Shown here piece after piece: positions 8,710-53,506 of a DNA stretch of 64,000 nt. The stretch spans positions 43,787 to 107,786 of the forward strand of contig CAMUJB010000007.1 of NCBI GenBank assembly GCA_947089095.1, in the 5' to 3' direction. The notes beneath the pieces were generated by a model that saw nothing but the letters and a program-made list of their open reading frames with translations, ran no database searches and was not told the DNA's origin. The first letter of the stretch is position 1. Each line of letters begins with the position of its first letter. The position numbers and the translations under genes are program-made. Source of the stretch: an uncultured Clostridia bacterium (GTDB taxonomy: Bacteria > Bacillota > Clostridia > Lachnospirales > Lachnospiraceae).

Positions 8710-8829
8710 GTCAAATCGGATATTCGCAATCCGCTTCGCTGCTTGCTCATAACCTCATCAAGGAAGTCCCAACCCACCGCTTTCGCCTTGGCGGCTTAGA
8801 AACGGGGGACTTCCTTGATGAGGTTAAAT
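8710..8829 (+). repeat. Fam-B hairpin repeat, standard form
   Basis: ggtcaaatcggatattcgcaatccgcttcgctgcttgctcataacctcatcaaggaagtccc...gggggacttccttgatgaggttaaat. Confidence 0.75.
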
Positions 8830-8857
8830 AATAAAACAAAAACGGAGAAAAGAAAAT

Positions 8858-11411: not shown

Positions 11412-11532
11412 AGTCAAATCGGATATTCGCAATCCGCTTTGCTACTTGCTCATAACCTCATCAAGGAAGTCCCAACCCACCGCTTTCGCCTTGGCGGCTT
11501 AGAAGCGGGGAACTTCCTTGATAAGGTTAAAA
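11412..11532 (+). repeat. Fam-B hairpin repeat, standard form; its terminal ggttaaaag supplies the TAA stop of the DUF445 gene
   Basis: Sequence identity to the other Fam-B copies. CDS 11527..12429 stop codon (rc of tta at 11527-11529) lies inside the element end. Confidence 0.75.
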
Positions 11533-12429
11533 GCATAGATTGATACATCCGATAATTAGTCCAATTAAAGCCCCCAAATTGATAATGGAATGAAGCTCCT
11601 TTTCCATAACGGAAAGGGTCAGTTTTTCAATCTCTTTTACATCCATAGTACGAATTTTTTCCTCGACAATCTGACTAATCGGAATATATTCCATTATAGT
11701 GCCAAAATAGTCTGTAATAATCCGCCGATAGAGAGATAACATCAGCTGTTCTAAATTTTCTTCTGTAACAGGCAGACCTTCCACTGTTTCGGCAATGGTT
11801 TTATCTGCAAAGCGATAGACTTCTTCTTTTGTTTTTTCCTCTATTAATGCTTTGCCATGTTCTTCTAGATATTGATTGAGTTCTTTTCTTATCATCTGTT
11901 CCATTCCGGCAATCATCTTATCATTTAACATCATAGCAAGTAAGGTGCCCTGTGTTTTCTGCCGAATTACTTCTGCTACCTTTTCTCCTACAATACTTCC
12001 AAAGTCCATCTCCGTTACTTTGTGATAGAGAAGCTCTCCTACGGTTTCTATCGTTTTTGTCAAAAACTGATCTACGGTTTCTTCTGAAGTCTGTTTTTCG
12101 GCAAATTCTTTTATTGTATTCTGATTGGTAATTCCTTTTTGATAAAAAACCGAAATTTGATTTTTTACTGTTTCCTGCATCTGCTCTGATAATAAAAGCT
12201 GCTCAAAATCTTTCTTTGTCAATAATACTTCTCCTACTGCTTCTCCCACTGCTTTTGCCAGCCGTTCCCTTCCTTTTGGAATAATTCCGGGAGTAAAGGG
12301 AAGCTGCCACTTTCCAAGATAGACTGGATACAACGGTCGAAACAGCATCTTTACTGCAATATAATTGGTAAAATATCCAATTGCAGCCCCTACCACAGGT
12401 CCTGCAAGCATTGTAATATCAAAAGCCAT
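11527..12429 (-). CDS. DUF445-family membrane-associated protein
   Basis: N-terminus MAFDITMLAGPVVGAAIGYFTNYIAVKMLFRP matches the DUF445/YheB-type family. Confidence 0.6.
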   Translation of the reverse strand: MAFDITMLAGPVVGAAIGYFTNYIAVKMLFRPLYPVYLGKWQLPFTPGIIPKGRERLAKAVGEAVGEVLLTKKDFEQLLLSEQMQETVKNQISVFYQKGITNQNTIKEFAEKQTSEETVDQFLTKTIETVGELLYHKVTEMDFGSIVGEKVAEVIRQKTQGTLLAMMLNDKMIAGMEQMIRKELNQYLEEHGKALIEEKTKEEVYRFADKTIAETVEGLPVTEENLEQLMLSLYRRIITDYFGTIMEYIPISQIVEEKIRTMDVKEIEKLTLSVMEKELHSIINLGALIGLIIGCINLCF

Positions 12430-21565: not shown

Positions 21566-21805
21566 AAAGGGGACGCCAGAGAGTATTAAAAGCACGCTGT
21601 TCCGCTCTCCAGAAAACAGAAACTCTAAGACTTCTGAATTTCAATGCATCCAACCGGACGGACCGGCACGCAATTCGCCTCTGCAGGAGGCTAAACACGT
21701 GCCTTTTTCGGGCACAAGTGCCCGAAAATCCTACAGAATCGACAGAAGTCTAAGAGTTTCTAGTTTTCCTCCGAAGTCACAGCGTACTTTTAATACTCTC
21801 TGGCT
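21566..21805 (-). repeat. Fam-A palindromic structured element, copy 2 (core variant B, reverse orientation)
   Basis: rc of core ggattttcgggcacttgtgcccgaaaaaggcacgtgtttagcctcctgcagaggcgaattgcgtgccggtccgtccgg. Termini ggggacgccagag...ctctggcta. Confidence 0.85.
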
Positions 21806-22120
21806 ATATAATTCCACAATTTACGTTTCTTTTCTTTCGCGGTTGTATGGTTCTTCAATTTGTGTTTTTTCTCCTTGGTGGTTGTATGATTCTGCAATTT
21901 ACGTTTCTTCCCCTTTATGGTTATATGACTCTGCAATTTATGTTTCTCCTTAGCGGTTGTATGATTCTGCAATTTACATTTCTTCTCTTTCATGGTTGTA
22001 TAATTCTGCAATTTATGTTTCTTCCCCTTTGTGATTATATGACTCTGCAATTTATATTTCTTCTTGGCGGTTGTATGATTCCGCAATTTACGTTTCTTTT
22101 TCTTTGCAGATGTATAATTT
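21806..22120. repeat. Tandem-repeat array 1 (about 9 units of alternating 39 and 36 bp; unit ggttgtatgattctgcaatttacgtttcttc...)
   Basis: Direct repeats read from the sequence. Starts at the ctctggc terminus of Fam-A copy 2. No interspersed unique spacers. Confidence 0.85.
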
Positions 22121-22237
22121 TATTTTGATAAACTCTATTCCAATAAAAGTATCTATAATAAACTCTAATCAGCTAAATCCAAAAGAAAAATTATACTAAC
22201 AGCAAAGATAACCTCTGCTATTGGCAAAAAATAAAAA

Positions 22238-22510
22238 CATAAATTGCGGGAATACCAGCCAGAGGGAGAAAGTAAAATGGTATCGCAGTGACTTCGGAGG
22301 AAAGTTAGAAGGTCTTAGACTTCTGTCGATTTTGTAGGATTTTCGGGCACTTGTGCCCGAAAAAGGCACGTGTTTAGCCTCCTGCAGAGGCGAATTGCGT
22401 GCCGGTCCGTCCGGTTGGATACACCGAAATTCAGAAGTCTTAGACCTTCTTACTTTCCGTAGAGCGGAACTGCGATACCATTTTACTTTCTCCCTCTGGC
22501 GTCCTCCCCC
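22238..22510 (+). repeat. Fam-A palindromic structured element, copy 3 (core variant B, forward)
   Basis: cataaattgcgggaataccagccagag...core B...ctctggcgtcctccccc. Confidence 0.85.
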
Positions 22511-29220: not shown

Positions 29221-30984
29221 ATGAGAAAACATACGCTAGAAACCCGCTGGACACAGCAAATTACAGAAACAAATGCCTGGCAGGAATACCCTCGCCCTAC
29301 TATGGTTCGCTCCTCTTATATAAACCTAAATGGTTACTGGGATTATAAAATCAGCAGACGTCACACCTTTCCCTCCGCCTATAGCGGAAAAATCCTAGTT
29401 CCATTCTCTCCCGAATCCAAACTATCCGGTGTACAGCGTCAGTTAAAACCAAATGAATATCTCTGGTACCACAGAACCCTTACCCCTTTATCATTTTCCA
29501 AACAAGAACGCCTCTATCTGCACTTTGGTGCAGTAGACCAATCCTGCACCGTTTACCTCAACCGCCGGAAAGTCGGTTCCCATCAGGGAGGCTATCTTCC
29601 TTTTTCGATTGACATTACGGAAGCGATGCGGCACGCTTCACCCAAAAAGTCTCTAGACTTATTCGTATGTGTAACCGATCCCAGTGACACCTCCTATCAC
29701 AGCCGGGGCAAACAAAAGCTCCGCAACGGCGGAATGTTTTATACTGCACAAAGCGGAATCTGGCAGACCGTCTGGATGGAACTTGTACCGGAAAATTTTA
29801 TCCGCTATGTCAAATTCACTCCTGACTACGATAAAAAAGAAGTAAAAGTAAAGATTGCTACAGAAAAAACCTGTCCTGCTGTATTACATCTAAAATTAGA
29901 ATCCGGCGATCTCTCTTATTCTTTTACAAGCAACCAAAGCTTTCGGATTCCGATTCGGGAATTTCACGCATGGAGTCCAGAGCATCCCTATCTGTACCAA
30001 GTAAAAATCACTACAAAGACAGACTGTATCTCCAGTTACTTTGCCCTAAGAAAATGTGAAATTCAAACCGATTCAAACGGAATCCGAAAAATCTTTCTTA
30101 ATAATCGCCCCTATCCGCAGATTGGCATCCTCGATCAGGGATACTGGCCAGACGGACTCTATACCCCGCCCTGTGAAGAAGCGATTTTATTTGATCTTTT
30201 GGCAATAAAAAAATTGGGATTTAATATGATCCGCAAACATGTAAAAATCGAATCGGAACGCTGGTACTATCACTGTGATCGGCTTGGTATTCTAGTCTGG
30301 CAGGATATGGTAAATGGCGGCTCACGCTACCACCGCTGGTTTGTTACTTACTTTGCCACTCTCTTTAACTGCCTGAATATCCGAATATTTGATCGTCCTC
30401 ATGCTTTATTTTCACGCAGACAAAAAGAAAGCCGAACCGAATGGACCAAAGAAGTCGTATCCACTGTCCGCACCTTATATCCTCATCCCTGCATTGTATG
30501 CTGGGTTCCATTTAACGAAGGATGGGGACAGTTTCGTGCACTTTCAGCAGCAGAATTGATTCGCAGTCTAGACAAAGAGCGGCTGATCGATCACGCCAGC
30601 GGCTGGTTTGATCAGGGAGGCGGCGATATAAAAAGTATTCACTACTATTTCTTCTCCCTGATTCTAAAACCGGAACGGCGTGCACTCGCTCTGACCGAAT
30701 TCGGCGGCTACACTTGGCATGTAAAAAAACACAGCTATTCCTCCAAAAAATTTGGCTATCGAACTTTTTACAGCAAAAATTCCCTGTCAAAAGGCTATGC
30801 CAAATTATTAGAAGACCTGATTTTTCCTGCATTTCAAAACGGACTTTCCGCCTCCGTCTATACCCAGCTTTCCGATGTAGAAGAGGAACTAAACGGCATC
30901 TTTACCTATGACAGAAAAATTCTGAAATTAGACAAAAAAACGGTTACCGAATGGAACCAAAAAATAAAAAATCTAATCGAGTAG
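29221..30984 (+). CDS. Glycoside hydrolase family 2-like protein
   Basis: 587 aa. N-terminal sugar-binding-like region and TIM-barrel segment (WQDMVNGG). Family assignment from overall similarity only. The last codons ATC GAG TAG lie inside a Fam-D repeat. Confidence 0.55.
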   Translation: MRKHTLETRWTQQITETNAWQEYPRPTMVRSSYINLNGYWDYKISRRHTFPSAYSGKILVPFSPESKLSGVQRQLKPNEYLWYHRTLTPLSFSKQERLYLHFGAVDQSCTVYLNRRKVGSHQGGYLPFSIDITEAMRHASPKKSLDLFVCVTDPSDTSYHSRGKQKLRNGGMFYTAQSGIWQTVWMELVPENFIRYVKFTPDYDKKEVKVKIATEKTCPAVLHLKLESGDLSYSFTSNQSFRIPIREFHAWSPEHPYLYQVKITTKTDCISSYFALRKCEIQTDSNGIRKIFLNNRPYPQIGILDQGYWPDGLYTPPCEEAILFDLLAIKKLGFNMIRKHVKIESERWYYHCDRLGILVWQDMVNGGSRYHRWFVTYFATLFNCLNIRIFDRPHALFSRRQKESRTEWTKEVVSTVRTLYPHPCIVCWVPFNEGWGQFRALSAAELIRSLDKERLIDHASGWFDQGGGDIKSIHYYFFSLILKPERRALALTEFGGYTWHVKKHSYSSKKFGYRTFYSKNSLSKGYAKLLEDLIFPAFQNGLSASVYTQLSDVEEELNGIFTYDRKILKLDKKTVTEWNQKIKNLIE

Positions 30985-31068
30985 GAAAGGTTACTTTCCC
31001 TACTCGCTGTCTCAGGCGTCCGTCAGCTCCGCTGACCTATTTCATTTAAACATTCATGTGCATAAAAA
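30975..31068 (+). repeat. Fam-D repeat, copy a (aatcgagtagg-hairpin-...gctgac...cataaaaa)
   Basis: Copies at 37750, 40424 (deletion form) and 49331. Contains hairpin gagtaggaaa..tttccctactc. Confidence 0.7.
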
Positions 31069-33162: not shown

Positions 33163-33428
33163 CAAGGGGACGCCAGAGTGCTTTAGGGAGACGTGTTCCG
33201 CTCTCCAGAAAGCAGAAGTTCTAAGACTTCTGAATTTCCGTGCATCCCGCCGGACGGACCGGCACGCAATTCGCCTCTGCAGGAGGCTAAACACGTGCCT
33301 TTTTCGGGCACAAGTGCCCGAAAATCCTACAGAATCGACAGAAGTCTAAGAACTTCTAGCTTTCCTCCGAAGTCACAACGTCTCCCTAAAGCACTCTGGC
33401 TGTATTGTCTCACAATTTACGTTTCCTT
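33163..33428 (-). repeat. Fam-A palindromic structured element, copy 4 (variant B, reverse)
   Basis: ggggacgccagagtg...rc core B...ctctggctgtattgtctcacaatttacgtttc. Confidence 0.85.
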
Positions 33429-33545
33429 TCTCGATCCTCTATGAATACAGGAATCAACTTTTATGTTTTCTTTTCTCGATCCTCTATGGATACAGGAATC
33501 AATTTCTATGTTTTCCTTTTTCGAACCTCCATGGATACAGGAATC
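33429..33545. repeat. Tandem-repeat array 2 (about 2.7 units of 45 bp; tcgatcctctatggatacaggaatcaatttctatgttttcctttt)
   Basis: Direct repeats lying between the head-to-head Fam-A copies 4 and 5. Confidence 0.8.
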
Positions 33546-33555
33546 AAATAAAAAC

Positions 33556-33833
33556 TTATCGGCAGGAAAAAACAGCCAGAGTGGGGAAAAGATTCCTTGC
33601 CACTGTGACTTCGGAGAAAAGTTAGAAAGTCTTATGCTTTTGTCGATCCACTAGGATTTTTTGCCATTCTCGAATGGCAAAAAAAGGGGTGTGTTTAGCC
33701 CGCTGTACGGGCGAATTGCACCCCGATCCGTCCGGCTGGATGTATCTACATTCAAAAGCATTAGACTTTCTTACTTTTTGGAGAGCGGAACAGTGGCAAG
33801 GAATCTTTTCCCCACTCTAGCGTCCCCCCGCCC
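33556..33833 (+). repeat. Fam-A palindromic structured element, copy 5 (variant A, forward)
   Basis: cttatcggcaggaaaaaacagccagag...core A...ctctagcgtccccccgccc. Confidence 0.85.
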
Positions 33834-37588: not shown

Positions 37589-37749
37589 AGCCGTCCCTTT
37601 CCCCGTCATACCAAACCTGCCATCCCTTCCGCCTGTCACAATGGAACCTCTACCCTCCTTCTACAATCAAACAAGAAAAATTTATCTTCCCCTGCTCATC
37701 TACCAAAATCTGTCAGCTTACTGAACGATTCCTTTGAACACCCATATAC

Positions 37750-37845
37750 CATCGAGTAGGAAAATTTCCTCTCCTTACTCGCTGCACCAAGCGTCCATCA
37801 GCTCCGCTAACATCATTCCCTTGGACGCCCGCATACATAAAAAAA
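37750..37845 (+). repeat. Fam-D repeat, copy b (inside the thi leader)
   Basis: atcgagtaggaaaatttcctctccttactcgctg...cagctccgctaac...gcatacataaaaaaa. Confidence 0.7.
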
Positions 37846-37980
37846 TGCAGACACGCAAAAAGCATATCTGCACCGTTCTTCCGCAAATGATGTCCCTACG
37901 TTGGCATTATCCAAATCAGGTTTTAAGGGTAAAAGCCTCACATGCTTACTCTCAGCCTATTCTAATAAGCTCCCCATATA
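37838..37980 (-). promoter_or_regulatory. TPP (THI-box) riboswitch with terminator-type expression platform, upstream of thiM-E-D-C
   Basis: Minus-strand aptamer GGGGAGC..GGCUGAGAG..ACCCUUAAAACCUGAUUUGGAUAAUGCCAACGUAGGGA matches the THI-element consensus. It is followed by the hairpin ugcagauaugcuuuuugcgugucugca + U7. Confidence 0.85.
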
Positions 37981-38019
37981 TTTCTATTATAACCTCTTTT
38001 TAAAAAAACACAATCCCCT

Positions 38020-38347
38020 TTTTCCAACAAAATCCTTTAACCCCTCCCAACACCATACCTCATTTGAACCTCTATTTTTTACTGAAATTATTCGAACCAA
38101 GTCCAATCAAATCCAACACCATACCTCATTTGAACTCCTATCTTTTACTGAAATTGGTCCAACCAAGTCCAATCAAATCCAACACCATACCTCATTTGAA
38201 CTCCTATCTTTTACTGAAATTGGTCCAACCAAGTCCAATCAAATCCAACACCATACCTCATTTGAACTCCTATCTTTTACTGAAATTGGTCCAACCAAGT
38301 CCAATCAAATCCAACATCGTACCTCATTTAAGCCTCTATCTTTTACT
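38020..38347. repeat. Tandem-repeat array 3 (about 4.7 units of 66 bp; caacaccatacctcatttgaactcctatcttttactgaaattggtccaaccaagtccaatcaaatc)
   Basis: Direct repeats abutting the 5' terminus of Fam-A copy 6. Confidence 0.85.
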
Positions 38348-38630
38348 CTATCGGCAGGATAAATCAGCCAGAACAAAGAAGCAATTTCTTGCTGACGTGA
38401 CTTCGGAGAAAAGTTAGAAAGTCTTACGCTTTTGTCGATCCACTAGGATTTTTTGCCATTCCCGAATGGCAAAAAAAGGGGTGTGTTTAGCCCGCTGCAC
38501 GGGCGAATTGCACCCCGGTCCGTCCGGCTGGATGCATCAAAATTCAAAAGCGTTAGACTTTCTTACTTTTCGGAGAGCGGAACGTCAGCAAGAAATTGCT
38601 TCTTTGTTCTAGCGTCCCCCACCCCCCATC
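38348..38630 (+). repeat. Fam-A palindromic structured element, copy 6 (variant A, forward)
   Basis: ctatcggcaggataaatcagccagaac...core A...ttctagcgtcccccacccccc. Confidence 0.85.
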
Positions 38631-48897: not shown

Positions 48898-49170
48898 AGT
48901 GGGGGGAGGACGCCAGAGTATGGCATTGCAGTACTGTTTCGCTCTACAGAAAGTAAGAAGCTCTAAGACTTCTGAATTTAGATGTATCCAACCGGACGGA
49001 CCGGGGTGCAATTCGCCCGTGCTGCGGGCTAAACACACCCCTTTTTTTGCCATTCAAGAATGGCAAAAAATCCTAATGAATCGACAGAAGTCTAAAAGCT
49101 TCTAACTTTCCTCCGAAGTCACAGTACTGCAATGCCATACTCTGGCTGTCTTTTTCCACAATATAGGTAT
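48898..49170 (-). repeat. Fam-A palindromic structured element, copy 8 (variant A, reverse)
   Basis: ggggggaggacgccagag...rc core A (P1 gccattcttgaatggc)...ctctggctgtctttttccacaatataggtattc. Confidence 0.85.
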
Positions 49171-49240: not shown

Positions 49241-49330
49241 ACTTAATAAAATAAAAGGCAGTTATCTTATCTTTTGATAACTGCCCAAACTAATGGTGAA
49301 TAAAATTTGTTATATTCTTTCTATTTTTAT

Positions 49331-49437
49331 AATCGAGTAGGGAAGGCTGCCTCCTCTACTCGCCGTGCTAAATGTCTGTCAGTTCTGCTGACATCGTTCC
49401 TTGAGATATCTGTGTACATAAAAAAATTCCCTGTAAA
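49331..49437 (+). repeat. Fam-D repeat, copy d, immediately beside tRNA-Leu
   Basis: aatcgagtagggaaggctgcctcctctactcgccg...tctgctgacatcg...gtacataaaaaaa. Confidence 0.7.
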
Positions 49438-49470
49438 CATTTCGTCTACAGAGAACGCCCCTGCCAAGAG

Positions 49471-49553
49471 TGCCGCAGGCCGGACTTGAACCGGCACGAG
49501 GTCGCCCCCGCTAGATTTTGAGTCTAGTGCGTCTGCCATTCCGCCACTGCGGC
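49471..49553 (-). tRNA. tRNA-Leu (anticodon CAA), class II with long variable arm
   Basis: Manual cloverleaf: acceptor GCCGCAG/CUGCGGC, anticodon stem CUAGA/UCUAG, loop CUCAAAA, T-arm GCCGG-UUCAAGU-CCGGC, discriminator A. No encoded CCA. Confidence 0.9.
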
Positions 49554-53130: not shown

Positions 53131-53405
53131 ATCTATCGCCAGAAAGAACCAGCTGGAGTTTGGAAGCCCTTTCTCTATGCAGTGACTTCGGAGAAAAGTT
53201 AGAAAGTCTTATGCCTCTGTCGATCTCCTAGGATTTTTGCCATCTTCTGATGGCAAAAAAGGGGTGTGTTTAGCCCGCTGCACGGGCGAATTGCACCCCG
53301 GTCCGTCCGGTTGGATATATTTTCATTCAGAGGCATTAGACTTTCTTACTTTTCGGAGAGCGGAACAGCATAGAGAAAGGGCTTCCAAACTCCAGCGTCC
53401 TCTAC
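53131..53405 (+). repeat. Fam-A palindromic structured element, copy 9 (variant A with P1 gccatc-ttct-gatggc)
   Basis: aatctatcgccagaaagaaccagctggag...core A...actccagcgtcctctacacc. Confidence 0.85.
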
Positions 53406-53506
53406 ACCATCCCCCCAGCTTTTCCATCCTAATATCCACACACCATCCCCCCCAGCTTTCCCATCTCAGTATCCACACCATTCCCCTCAACCTTCACTTT
53501 TCTCTA

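Follow-up and report, generated by a model that had tools for sequence, protein, structure and literature searches.

The window analyzed here, a 64-kb (64,000-nt) stretch of contig CAMUJB010000007.1 from an uncultured Lachnospiraceae bacterium, hosts a dispersed, palindrome-like element of ~235-250 nt in nine copies (six on the plus strand and three on the minus strand), and the span 22238-22510 represents one of them, copy 3. The two long arms of the element fail to pair over a short stretch, the "bubble", and the question raised by this locus is what this stretch is and on which strand it acts. Our data show that the bubble, far from being an open 12-nt loop, is a part of the basal helix with a defined non-Watson-Crick structure and a constrained sequence. 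The best explanation overall, to which we assign a probability of roughly 55%, is that the element is a lineage variant of the RNA family TwoAYGGAY that acts as a single strand in the Rfam orientation (plus for copy 3), with the bubble serving as a protein-recognition or processing platform.

Relation of the element to TwoAYGGAY

The whole hairpin of copy 3, as delimited by its minimum free energy (MFE) fold and by alignment, occupies positions 22258-22500 of the plus strand. Each copy starts with GCCAGAG and ends with CTCTGGC followed by an invariant GTCC, which in copy 3 forms an unpaired 3′ tail at 22501-22504 (+). The MFE of copy 3, -151 kcal/mol (z = -16.4 relative to shuffles), is that of a very long hairpin. 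When copy 3 was searched alone, positions 22293-22465 of the plus strand, the relevant strand, matched model positions 1-168 of Rfam family RF01731 (TwoAYGGAY) with 75.1 bits and E = 5e-13 (the gathering score is 43 bits). Scans of the whole window, in both gathering and E-value modes, reported only one of the nine copies (48942-49117, 70.5 bits), the others being absent because of the speed filters.

Two alignments underlie the analysis: A1, which holds the nine window copies, and A2, which holds 54 distinct full-length copies plus copy 1. The copies in A2 come from the window, the mouse-gut Lachnospiraceae metagenome-assembled genome (MAG) MGBC128194, one other Lachnospiraceae MAG, and a few related metagenome contigs. 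A genome collection was scanned with a core motif placed outside the bubble, and a metagenome collection with a second, stricter core motif. About half of the matches listed in the genome scan were chance matches in unrelated phyla, owing to the variable gap of the motif, and the true ones among those listed came from one Lachnospiraceae MAG plus one other MAG. The stricter motif yielded 11 metagenome stretches, the true ones all belonging to the same clade. The extra copies were retrieved by an exact 17-base core motif, mostly from one MAG, and therefore represent one young subfamily and are not independent; p-values resting on such related copies are inexact, and for the functional strand every measure agrees in direction.

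TwoAYGGAY was described in 2010 (PMC2864571) and has been an orphan RNA family since. Our element resembles it in scoring 70-75 bits on the same strand, in having two hairpins on a long basal stem, and in occurring in gut Clostridia as multiple intergenic copies. The arrangement of two successive hairpins on one basal stem is supported by covariation, given that the RNAalifold consensus contains compensatory changes in 42 of 93 pairs, distributed over both hairpins and the basal stem. According to this consensus, the compensatory pairs and the Rfam alignment, the core of copy 3 (22326-22431, +) comprises a junction strand UAGGAU, hairpin 1, hairpin 2 with a GUUUAGCC/GGCGAAUUGC internal loop, a small CCGG hairpin, and a junction strand UUGGAU. 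In addition, the conserved unpaired ends of the Rfam model fall inside the bubble: its 5′ UauGGAA corresponds to UUCGGAG and its 3′ GuAguuu to GUAGAGC in copy 3. The purine-rich portion of these ends (UauGGAA ... GuAg, matched by UUCGGAG ... GUAG) coincides with the inner half of the bubble, a symmetric 3x3 loop.

The element differs from the published family in its loops and its length. AYGGAY was found in neither of the terminal hairpin loops, and no loop GGA occurs in any of the 54 copies; the loop of hairpin 1 is UUCUCGAA or CUUG and that of hairpin 2 is CUGUA or CUGCA, while UAGGAU (98%) and UUGGAU (70%) are located in the junction strands. Furthermore, the helix continues for 32 bp (26 bp in the S type, see below) past the Rfam model, and a tandem G·A and a C bulge also lie outside the model. 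By covariance model, architecture and habitat, the element is classed as a lineage variant of TwoAYGGAY from which literal AYGGAY loops are absent.

The internal loop of hairpin 2 (22373-22398, in all copies) contains a tandem U·G/G·U and UUUA over GAAU, and it is conserved like the bubble, an invariance that is partly forced by use of the same motif to retrieve the copies. Two other accounts of the element were rejected. A coding role was discarded since the overlapping open reading frames (ORFs) are not conserved and the stems covary, and the idea of a core cassette inserted into host terminator hairpins of unrelated origin was discarded since the outer stems share a subtype consensus and conserved ends.

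Anatomy and conservation of the bubble

In eight of the nine window copies, the arms are not reverse complements, with no pairing over 11-12 nt. The 5′ arm reads GTGACTTCGGAG[G/A]AAA[G/A][T/C]TAGA and the 3′ arm reads ...CTTT[C/T][C/T][G][G/T/A]AGAGCG[G/A]AAC, ending AGAGCGGAAC. A preliminary description of this DNA had reported the same asymmetry in the form of two consensus strings. The asymmetry stands, and the letters need correction: the T variant CGTAGG occurs in copy 1 only, and upstream of AGAGCGGAAC the 3′ arm is more variable than had been stated, one copy having AGAGCGAAAC.

In copy 3, the 5′ strand of the outer stem (22258-22289, +) pairs with 22469-22500; its GCCAGAG ends are conserved, and its middle varies fast with compensatory changes. 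The 5′ bubble strand, GTGACTTCGGA, spans 22288-22298 (+), and the 3′ bubble strand, GTAGAGCGGAAC, spans 22459-22470 (+). Both closing pairs at the outer edge covary and extend the outer helix, namely, G22288-C22470 (GC in 51, AU in 2, and GU in 1 of the 54 copies) and U22289-A22469 (UA 47, CG 4, UG 3). Next comes a tandem G·A/A·G, formed by G22290·A22468 in 54 of 54 copies and A22291·G22467 in 50 of 54. A mini-helix follows, which starts with the pair C22292-G22466, is interrupted by the bulged C22465 (C in 52/54), and continues with U22293·G22464, U22294-A22463 and C22295-G22462, the last showing one C-G to U-A double change. The partition function agrees with this register: cross-helix pairing of CUUC with GAG(C)G has p = 0.93-0.99. 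The innermost part is the symmetric 3x3 loop, 5′-GGA (G22296, G22297, A22298) over 5′-GNA (G22459, N22460, A22461), with G22296·A22461 in all 54 copies, a variable middle opposition (G22297·N22460: GG 42, GU 6, GA 4), and A22298·G22459 as AG in 47 and AA in 6.

The inner stem (5′ strand 22299-22325, +; partner 22432-22458) begins with G22299-C22458 and is rich in covariation, with 99.4% of its cells paired and changes on both sides in 11 of 25 pairs. Two invariant U·U mismatches, 22306/22451 (51/54 copies) and 22316/22441 (53/54), lie about 10 bp from each other and divide this stem into three helical segments (7, 9 and 9 bp). The non-canonical features of the basal helix (tandem G·A, 3x3 loop, U·U, and U·U) are thus spaced about one helical turn from each other.

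The notion that the arms form an internal bubble upon pairing is correct insofar as the non-Watson-Crick stretch is real, but the stretch is not open: its components are the 2x2 tandem G·A, a helix of 4 bp from which a C bulges, and the 3x3 loop of purines. Of the tetraloop-like cores that had been proposed for the two strands, cUUCGg and gaGCGGaac, the former has no local stem, and the GCGG of the latter belongs to the cross-strand helix and the tandem G·A. A C(UUCG)G tetraloop was rejected; its flanks cannot pair (A·A, G·G), and the segment alone folds at -3.2 kcal/mol into an MFE structure that lacks the UUCG closure.

Tandem sheared G·A pairs and purine-rich symmetric loops are common protein-binding or packing modules of RNA. 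The bubble is similar to them in placing 5′-GA/5′-GA between Watson-Crick pairs and in its 3x3 GGA/GNA loop. It differs in that its geometry, sheared at the tandem G·A, is a prediction from sequence. A kink-turn might also be drawn for the inner half of the bubble, with the inner stem as its C helix, G22459-N-A22461 as its 3-nt bulge, and G22462·A22298 and A22463·G22297 as its tandem sheared pairs, so that a protein of the L7Ae family (YbxF/YlxQ in Bacillota) would bind. Indeed, the signature fits at 22296-22299/22458-22463 (GA directly 5′ of the C helix, and a 3-nt bulge then GA opposite), the four G/A positions are 96-98% conserved, and the middle base of the bulge is the most variable. However, the plain-helix register gains four pairs with the probabilities given above, and the outer closing pairs covary in this register. 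Moreover, the single informative variant (the C-G to U-A change at 22295/22462) supports the plain helix and would destroy a G of the kink-turn, and the Rfam family consensus at this place is GuAgu, not GNAGA. With pairing probabilities and covariation both disfavoring its register, we regard a kink-turn as very unlikely.

We assessed how well the bubble is preserved relative to its surroundings in 53 copies (copy 1 left out). Identity to the consensus was 0.981 for the 5′ bubble strand, with 10 of 11 columns at or above 96%, and 0.938 for the 3′ strand (GNAGAGCGGAAC), compared with 0.995 for the GTCC tail, 0.85-0.89 for the inner stem, 0.88 for the core, and 0.55 for the variable outer stem. 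The preliminary description had asked whether the bubble is invariant while the flanking arms drift, or as variable as they are, and the former is the case. The asymmetry is conserved and orientation-specific to a degree well above chance, and its four G·A and A·G oppositions are nearly invariant (54/54, 50/54, 54/54 and 47/54). The outer stem drifts in sequence and remains paired: its oppositions across copies amount to 1316 Watson-Crick, 36 G·U, 16 A·C, and 12 other, i.e., about 95% Watson-Crick. For the basal helix as a whole, 98.4% of the cells in A2 are paired, versus 40-50% when the partner is slid by 1-3 columns, and both sides have changed in 26 of 45 pairs.

Copy 1 (2097-2330, +; identified by an inverted-repeat call and alignment) carries no bubble. 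It had been described as a perfect palindrome, which holds for the bubble region, where the arms are fully complementary; the 62-nt inverted repeat as a whole is 98% complementary. About 24 nt of its 3′ arm (roughly 2285-2308) are the exact complement of the 5′ arm, and in this way both non-canonical modules and the first U·U have been erased, with the second U·U retained. We take this pattern to be the signature of hairpin-templated correction of a quasi-palindrome. Such correction could help the drifting outer stem to stay complementary even if selection played no part. The bubble, too, would be lost by it, but only 1 of 55 copies shows this loss, which argues for purifying selection on the bubble.

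This low frequency bears on the possibility that the bubble has no function of its own, being a scar of the founder copy that is kept by the youth of the copies or by gene conversion, with the mismatch merely preventing an unstable perfect palindrome. In line with this, all copies come from one narrow clade, and conversion events do occur. Nevertheless, identity has fallen to 55% in the adjacent outer stem and compensatory changes are many in the inner stem, and so the copies are not young in this sense; breaking a palindrome needs no fixed sequence; GGA over GNA is also present in the family-wide Rfam consensus (UauGGAA...GuAg); and hairpin-templated correction would have removed the bubble far more widely. 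We therefore consider a mere scar highly improbable.

Functional strand and possible role of the module

Transitions within a helix yield G·U or A·C with equal likelihood on a given strand, and an excess of G·U thus points to the strand that folds. In the Rfam orientation, the ratio of G·U to A·C is 78:14 in the conserved stems (one invariant U·G left out) and 36:16 in the variable outer stem. The bias is seen in both subtypes, with 42:4 for S copies and 53:20 for L copies. Folding of the two strands separately, as the preliminary description had suggested, revealed that the Rfam-orientation strand is the more stable in 45 of 49 copies, by a mean of 10.6 kcal/mol with RNA parameters. DNA parameters also favored this strand (42/49 copies, 3.4 kcal/mol), with the bubble simply open. 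The arms look asymmetric in DNA because the counterparts of G·A, G·U and U·U on the complementary strand (C·U, A·C and A·A, respectively) are not stable equivalents. Collectively, the G·U bias, the folding energies, the Rfam match and the palindrome correction that cost copy 1 its bubble all point to the same strand, as expected if one particular strand is the functional form. On this basis, the element very probably acts as a strand-specific, single-stranded module, and the functional molecule is probably RNA rather than single-stranded DNA (ssDNA).

As for what such an RNA might do, we propose that the module is a recognition platform in which three conserved GGA triplets and purine-purine pairs would be displayed in a widened helix. 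The platform would sit where the fast-evolving 24-30 bp outer duplex meets the conserved inner RNA, and a protein would bind at the module or measure from there. On the sequence evidence, we give a protein or processing platform about even odds. The leading candidate for the partner is a GGA-reading dimeric regulator of the CsrA type, and in a second candidate role, the module would define where RNase III stops cutting the outer duplex. Conserved GGA triplets are found at 22296-98 (94%), 22337-39 (98%) and 22466-68 (93%), and the conserved triplets number three to five in all, with three ascribed to the bubble and two more to the junctions. CsrA binding has already been hypothesized for the TwoAYGGAY family (PMC4333381). 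A CsrA-family ORF (Pfam, 61.4 bits) is present in a related MAG.

The comparison with CsrA sponges of the CsrB/RsmY type is instructive in both directions. They too have several conserved GGA triplets per RNA, whereas the GGAs of our element are mostly helical or in junctions and not in hairpin loops, and its genomic copies are very many. No sponge of the CsrB/RsmY type is known from Bacillota, where FliW antagonizes CsrA. The identification of CsrA specifically as the partner is accordingly tentative, and we think it doubtful. The CsrA-family ORF of the related Lachnospiraceae MAG adjoins an ORF of the phage-integrase family (L039, 412-726 and 818-1423, both on the minus strand), which suggests that this CsrA copy is carried on a mobile element.

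The alternative in which the module is purely a processing boundary deserves separate mention. RNase III requires regular duplex of about two turns, and internal loops block it. The 24-30 bp outer duplex would be its substrate, and the bubble and the periodic U·U mismatches would act as stop signs, so that a defined inner RNA is released. The outer duplex is indeed of suitable length and about 95% Watson-Crick, the non-canonical features recur roughly each helical turn, and the inner RNA and the GTCC tail are conserved while the sequence of the outer stem drifts. However, a stop sign requires mismatches only, and not 94-98% identity or fixed G·A oppositions. Furthermore, the conserved GCCAGAG/CTCTGGC ends and the GTCC tail would be unaccounted for if they were trimmed off. 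For these reasons, a processing boundary alone is rather unlikely to explain the bubble.

Several observations weigh against a TwoAYGGAY-derived RNA with a recognition platform. The enrichment of GGA is modest (6.5 per element versus 4.0 in shuffles), the GGAs of the bubble lie inside a long rigid helix and not in hairpin loops, where CsrA usually binds, and AYGGAY is absent from the hairpin loops of this lineage. Nine copies per 64 kb beside unrelated housekeeping genes resemble a selfish or general-purpose repeat more closely than they do a dedicated regulator. The promoter signal is weak, the only one being an extended -10-like TGnAACAAT in the 5′ flank of S-type copies that the consensus scan did not call; around copy 3, this promoter and terminator scan found nothing above background. 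In addition, the counts are drawn from related copies in essentially two genomes. With regard to the strand, G·T wobbles are tolerated in ssDNA too, and the G·U bias alone is therefore compatible with a DNA-strand function, and the A-run 5′ of L-type copies gives a hairpin plus U-run on the opposite strand that is terminator-like for the convergent gene, so that the opposite strand may matter as well.

Genomic setting and significance

The copies fall into two types. The outer stem of S copies measures 24 bp; a conserved AAACGTAAATTGTGGAACAATACA, on weak evidence a possible extended -10 promoter, flanks these copies on the 5′ side and GTCCTCTTTGG on the 3′ side, and a co-oriented gene usually follows 120-220 nt downstream. 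In L copies, the outer stem measures 30 bp and is preceded by an A-run, the 3′ flank is rich in C, and the copy often faces the 3′ end of a convergent gene. In the window, the S type is represented by copy 2 (21575-21804, -), which has a 24-bp outer stem and a co-oriented ORF 19 nt downstream and is the divergent partner of copy 3, by copy 4 (33172-33400, -), the divergent partner of copy 5, and by copy 8 (48912-49146, -), the copy with the 70.5-bit Rfam match. The L type is represented by copy 5 (33575-33821, +; 30-bp outer stem), copy 6 (38367-38613, +), copy 7 (43005-43248, +) and copy 9 (53152-53396, +).

Divergent doublets, each of one S and one L copy, were found at 21575-22500 and 33172-33821 of the window and at the MAG loci L007, L058, L066, L071, L081, L088, L095 and L112. 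Their spacer is conserved (window and MAG are 75-77% identical over about 680 nt), and comparison of the window with the MAG loci revealed no synteny beyond the doublets themselves. Read on the strand of the genes, a doublet resembles a terminator, the spacer, and a leader hairpin between two co-directional genes. The genes that neighbor the copies are unrelated housekeeping genes. Tandem arrays stand beside copies at 21817-22119, 33422-33547, 38047-38347 and 53404-53478, with units of 39, 45, 66 and 37 nt. The 39-nt array, upstream of copy 2, reiterates the S-type 5′ flank (GAAACGTAAATTG... when read on the minus strand), and the 45-nt array reiterates the L-type 5′ extension (CCTCTATGGATACAGGAATCAAC). 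The arrays with units of 39-66 nt are amplified parts of the doublet spacer.

This organization raises the possibility of a signal at the DNA level, in which the element spreads via an ssDNA hairpin and the mismatched bubble tells a transposase or recombinase which strand it is on. The high copy number (nine in 64 kb, and >60 pieces in one MAG among the matches listed), the copies that break assemblies at contig ends, and the divergent doublets with flanking tandem arrays would all fit, and a preprint (bioRxiv 10.64898/2026.09.22.753630) reads such doublets and arrays as pointing to mobile-element-like expansion. Besides, copy 1 shows that intrastrand hairpin-templated events occur in DNA, and the strand bias persists with DNA parameters (42/49). 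On the other hand, no transposase, integrase, reverse transcriptase or CsrA is encoded among the about 49 ORFs of the window, and searches of viral, plasmid and phage collections returned no copies. The element is ten times the size of known ssDNA recognition hairpins, and under DNA parameters the two strands differ little (3.4 kcal/mol) and the bubble is simply open. The invariant tandem U·G/G·U and G·A motifs and the 75-bit covariance-model match suit a folded RNA better. Empty sites and strain polymorphism were sought via the ThiC neighbor, and neither these nor target-site duplications were found, the related contigs being identical to the window or ending inside the repeat. A DNA-level signal is thus unlikely.

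A more specific version of this idea, which we consider improbable, holds that the bubble is a strand-marking recognition site for copying machinery and that TwoAYGGAY elements are large, structured, non-autonomous mobile elements propagating via a single-stranded (DNA or RNA) hairpin. The conserved mismatches would then act as extrahelical bases do in attC sites, and the outer stem would stay paired through hairpin-templated repair. Integron attC sites and REP/REPIN elements do share with our element imperfect palindromes, conserved mismatches that distinguish the strands, dispersed intergenic copies, and, in part of the stem, conservation of structure over sequence. Our element is much larger, with a complex conserved core and an RNA-family covariance match, and the window shows neither an integrase nor a transposase among its about 49 ORFs, no RAYT nearby, and no cassette organization.

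Contigs often start or end inside the element (e.g., L006, L010, L012, L023, L039, L087 and L105; also L125 and L133), and short-read assemblies are fragmented there. Contig L125 carries the palindrome on into the flanks, probably as a fold-back artifact.

Other repeats were also observed in the window. A second family of ~59 nt (CCACCGCTTTCGCCTTGGCGGCTTAGAAGCGGGGGACTTCCTTGATGAGGTTAAA), found in both orientations and with no Rfam match, occurs at 1859-1917, 8774-8832, 11477-11535, 40305-40363 and 63853-63919, and also in L013 beside a TwoAYGGAY copy. A third family of ~95 nt, in which a hairpin CGAGTAGGGAAAG...CTTTCCCTACTCG precedes GGCGTCCGTCAGC...GCTGAC, occurs at 30974-31068, 37749-37843 and 49330-49424, and has the motif GGCGTCC in common with the invariant 3′ tail of the TwoAYGGAY copies. 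A repeat of ~150 nt forms an inverted pair (8458-8613/9328-9481, 714 nt apart) around a small GNAT acetyltransferase gene, with a third copy at 63147-63299 near the end of the window. A thiamine pyrophosphate (TPP) riboswitch (37876-37986, -; 67.7 bits) lies ahead of a thiamine operon (thiazole kinase, TMP synthase, HMP-P kinase, and ThiC), and the 66-nt tandem array and copy 6 are just upstream of it. Finally, an 812-aa ORF at 40475-42913 (-) with the Pfam domains MVP_shoulder (80 bits) and Vault_3 is major-vault-protein-like, encoded here on a bacterial chromosome, and a tRNA-Leu(CAA) gene is located at 49470-49553 (-).

Parts of the extended structure have been noticed before. Tandem G·As in a TwoAYGGAY stem, which may be those described here, were reported by RMDetect, as cited in PMC4333381. 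The same paper noted an outer, poorly conserved stem for Rfam 11, and CaCoFold extended a helix (PMC7657543). According to the above-mentioned preprint (bioRxiv 10.64898/2026.09.22.753630), Bacillota matches have an elongated basal stem, and the extended TwoAYGGAY of Pseudomonadota is similar to our element in having structure past the Rfam model, copy expansion, divergent doublets, and fixed-orientation 5′ repeat arrays. Our element differs in having no extra hairpins or 3′ pseudoknot, in array units of 39-66 nt as opposed to 5-6 nt, and in doublets that join S with L; the bubble is not described in the main text of the preprint. What is new here is the exact layout of the module, the extreme degree to which it is conserved in comparison with the outer stem, the quantitative strand evidence, the S/L doublets in a Lachnospiraceae, and a natural bubble-less copy. 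The result is added detail on a known orphan family, not a new kind of system.

For annotation, the elements matter since they are dense (nine per 64 kb), break assemblies, and escape default Rfam scans of long sequences. For the family, the locus amounts to a natural experiment, in which the outer stem has drifted freely across dozens of copies while an 11-12 nt non-complementary pair of strands has stayed nearly fixed. It identifies the nucleotides that most probably touch a partner and establishes which strand functions. Moreover, the AYGGAY loops are dispensable in this lineage and the basal purine loop is shared with the Rfam model, and the search for a binding protein of TwoAYGGAY thereby shifts from the loops to the basal module.

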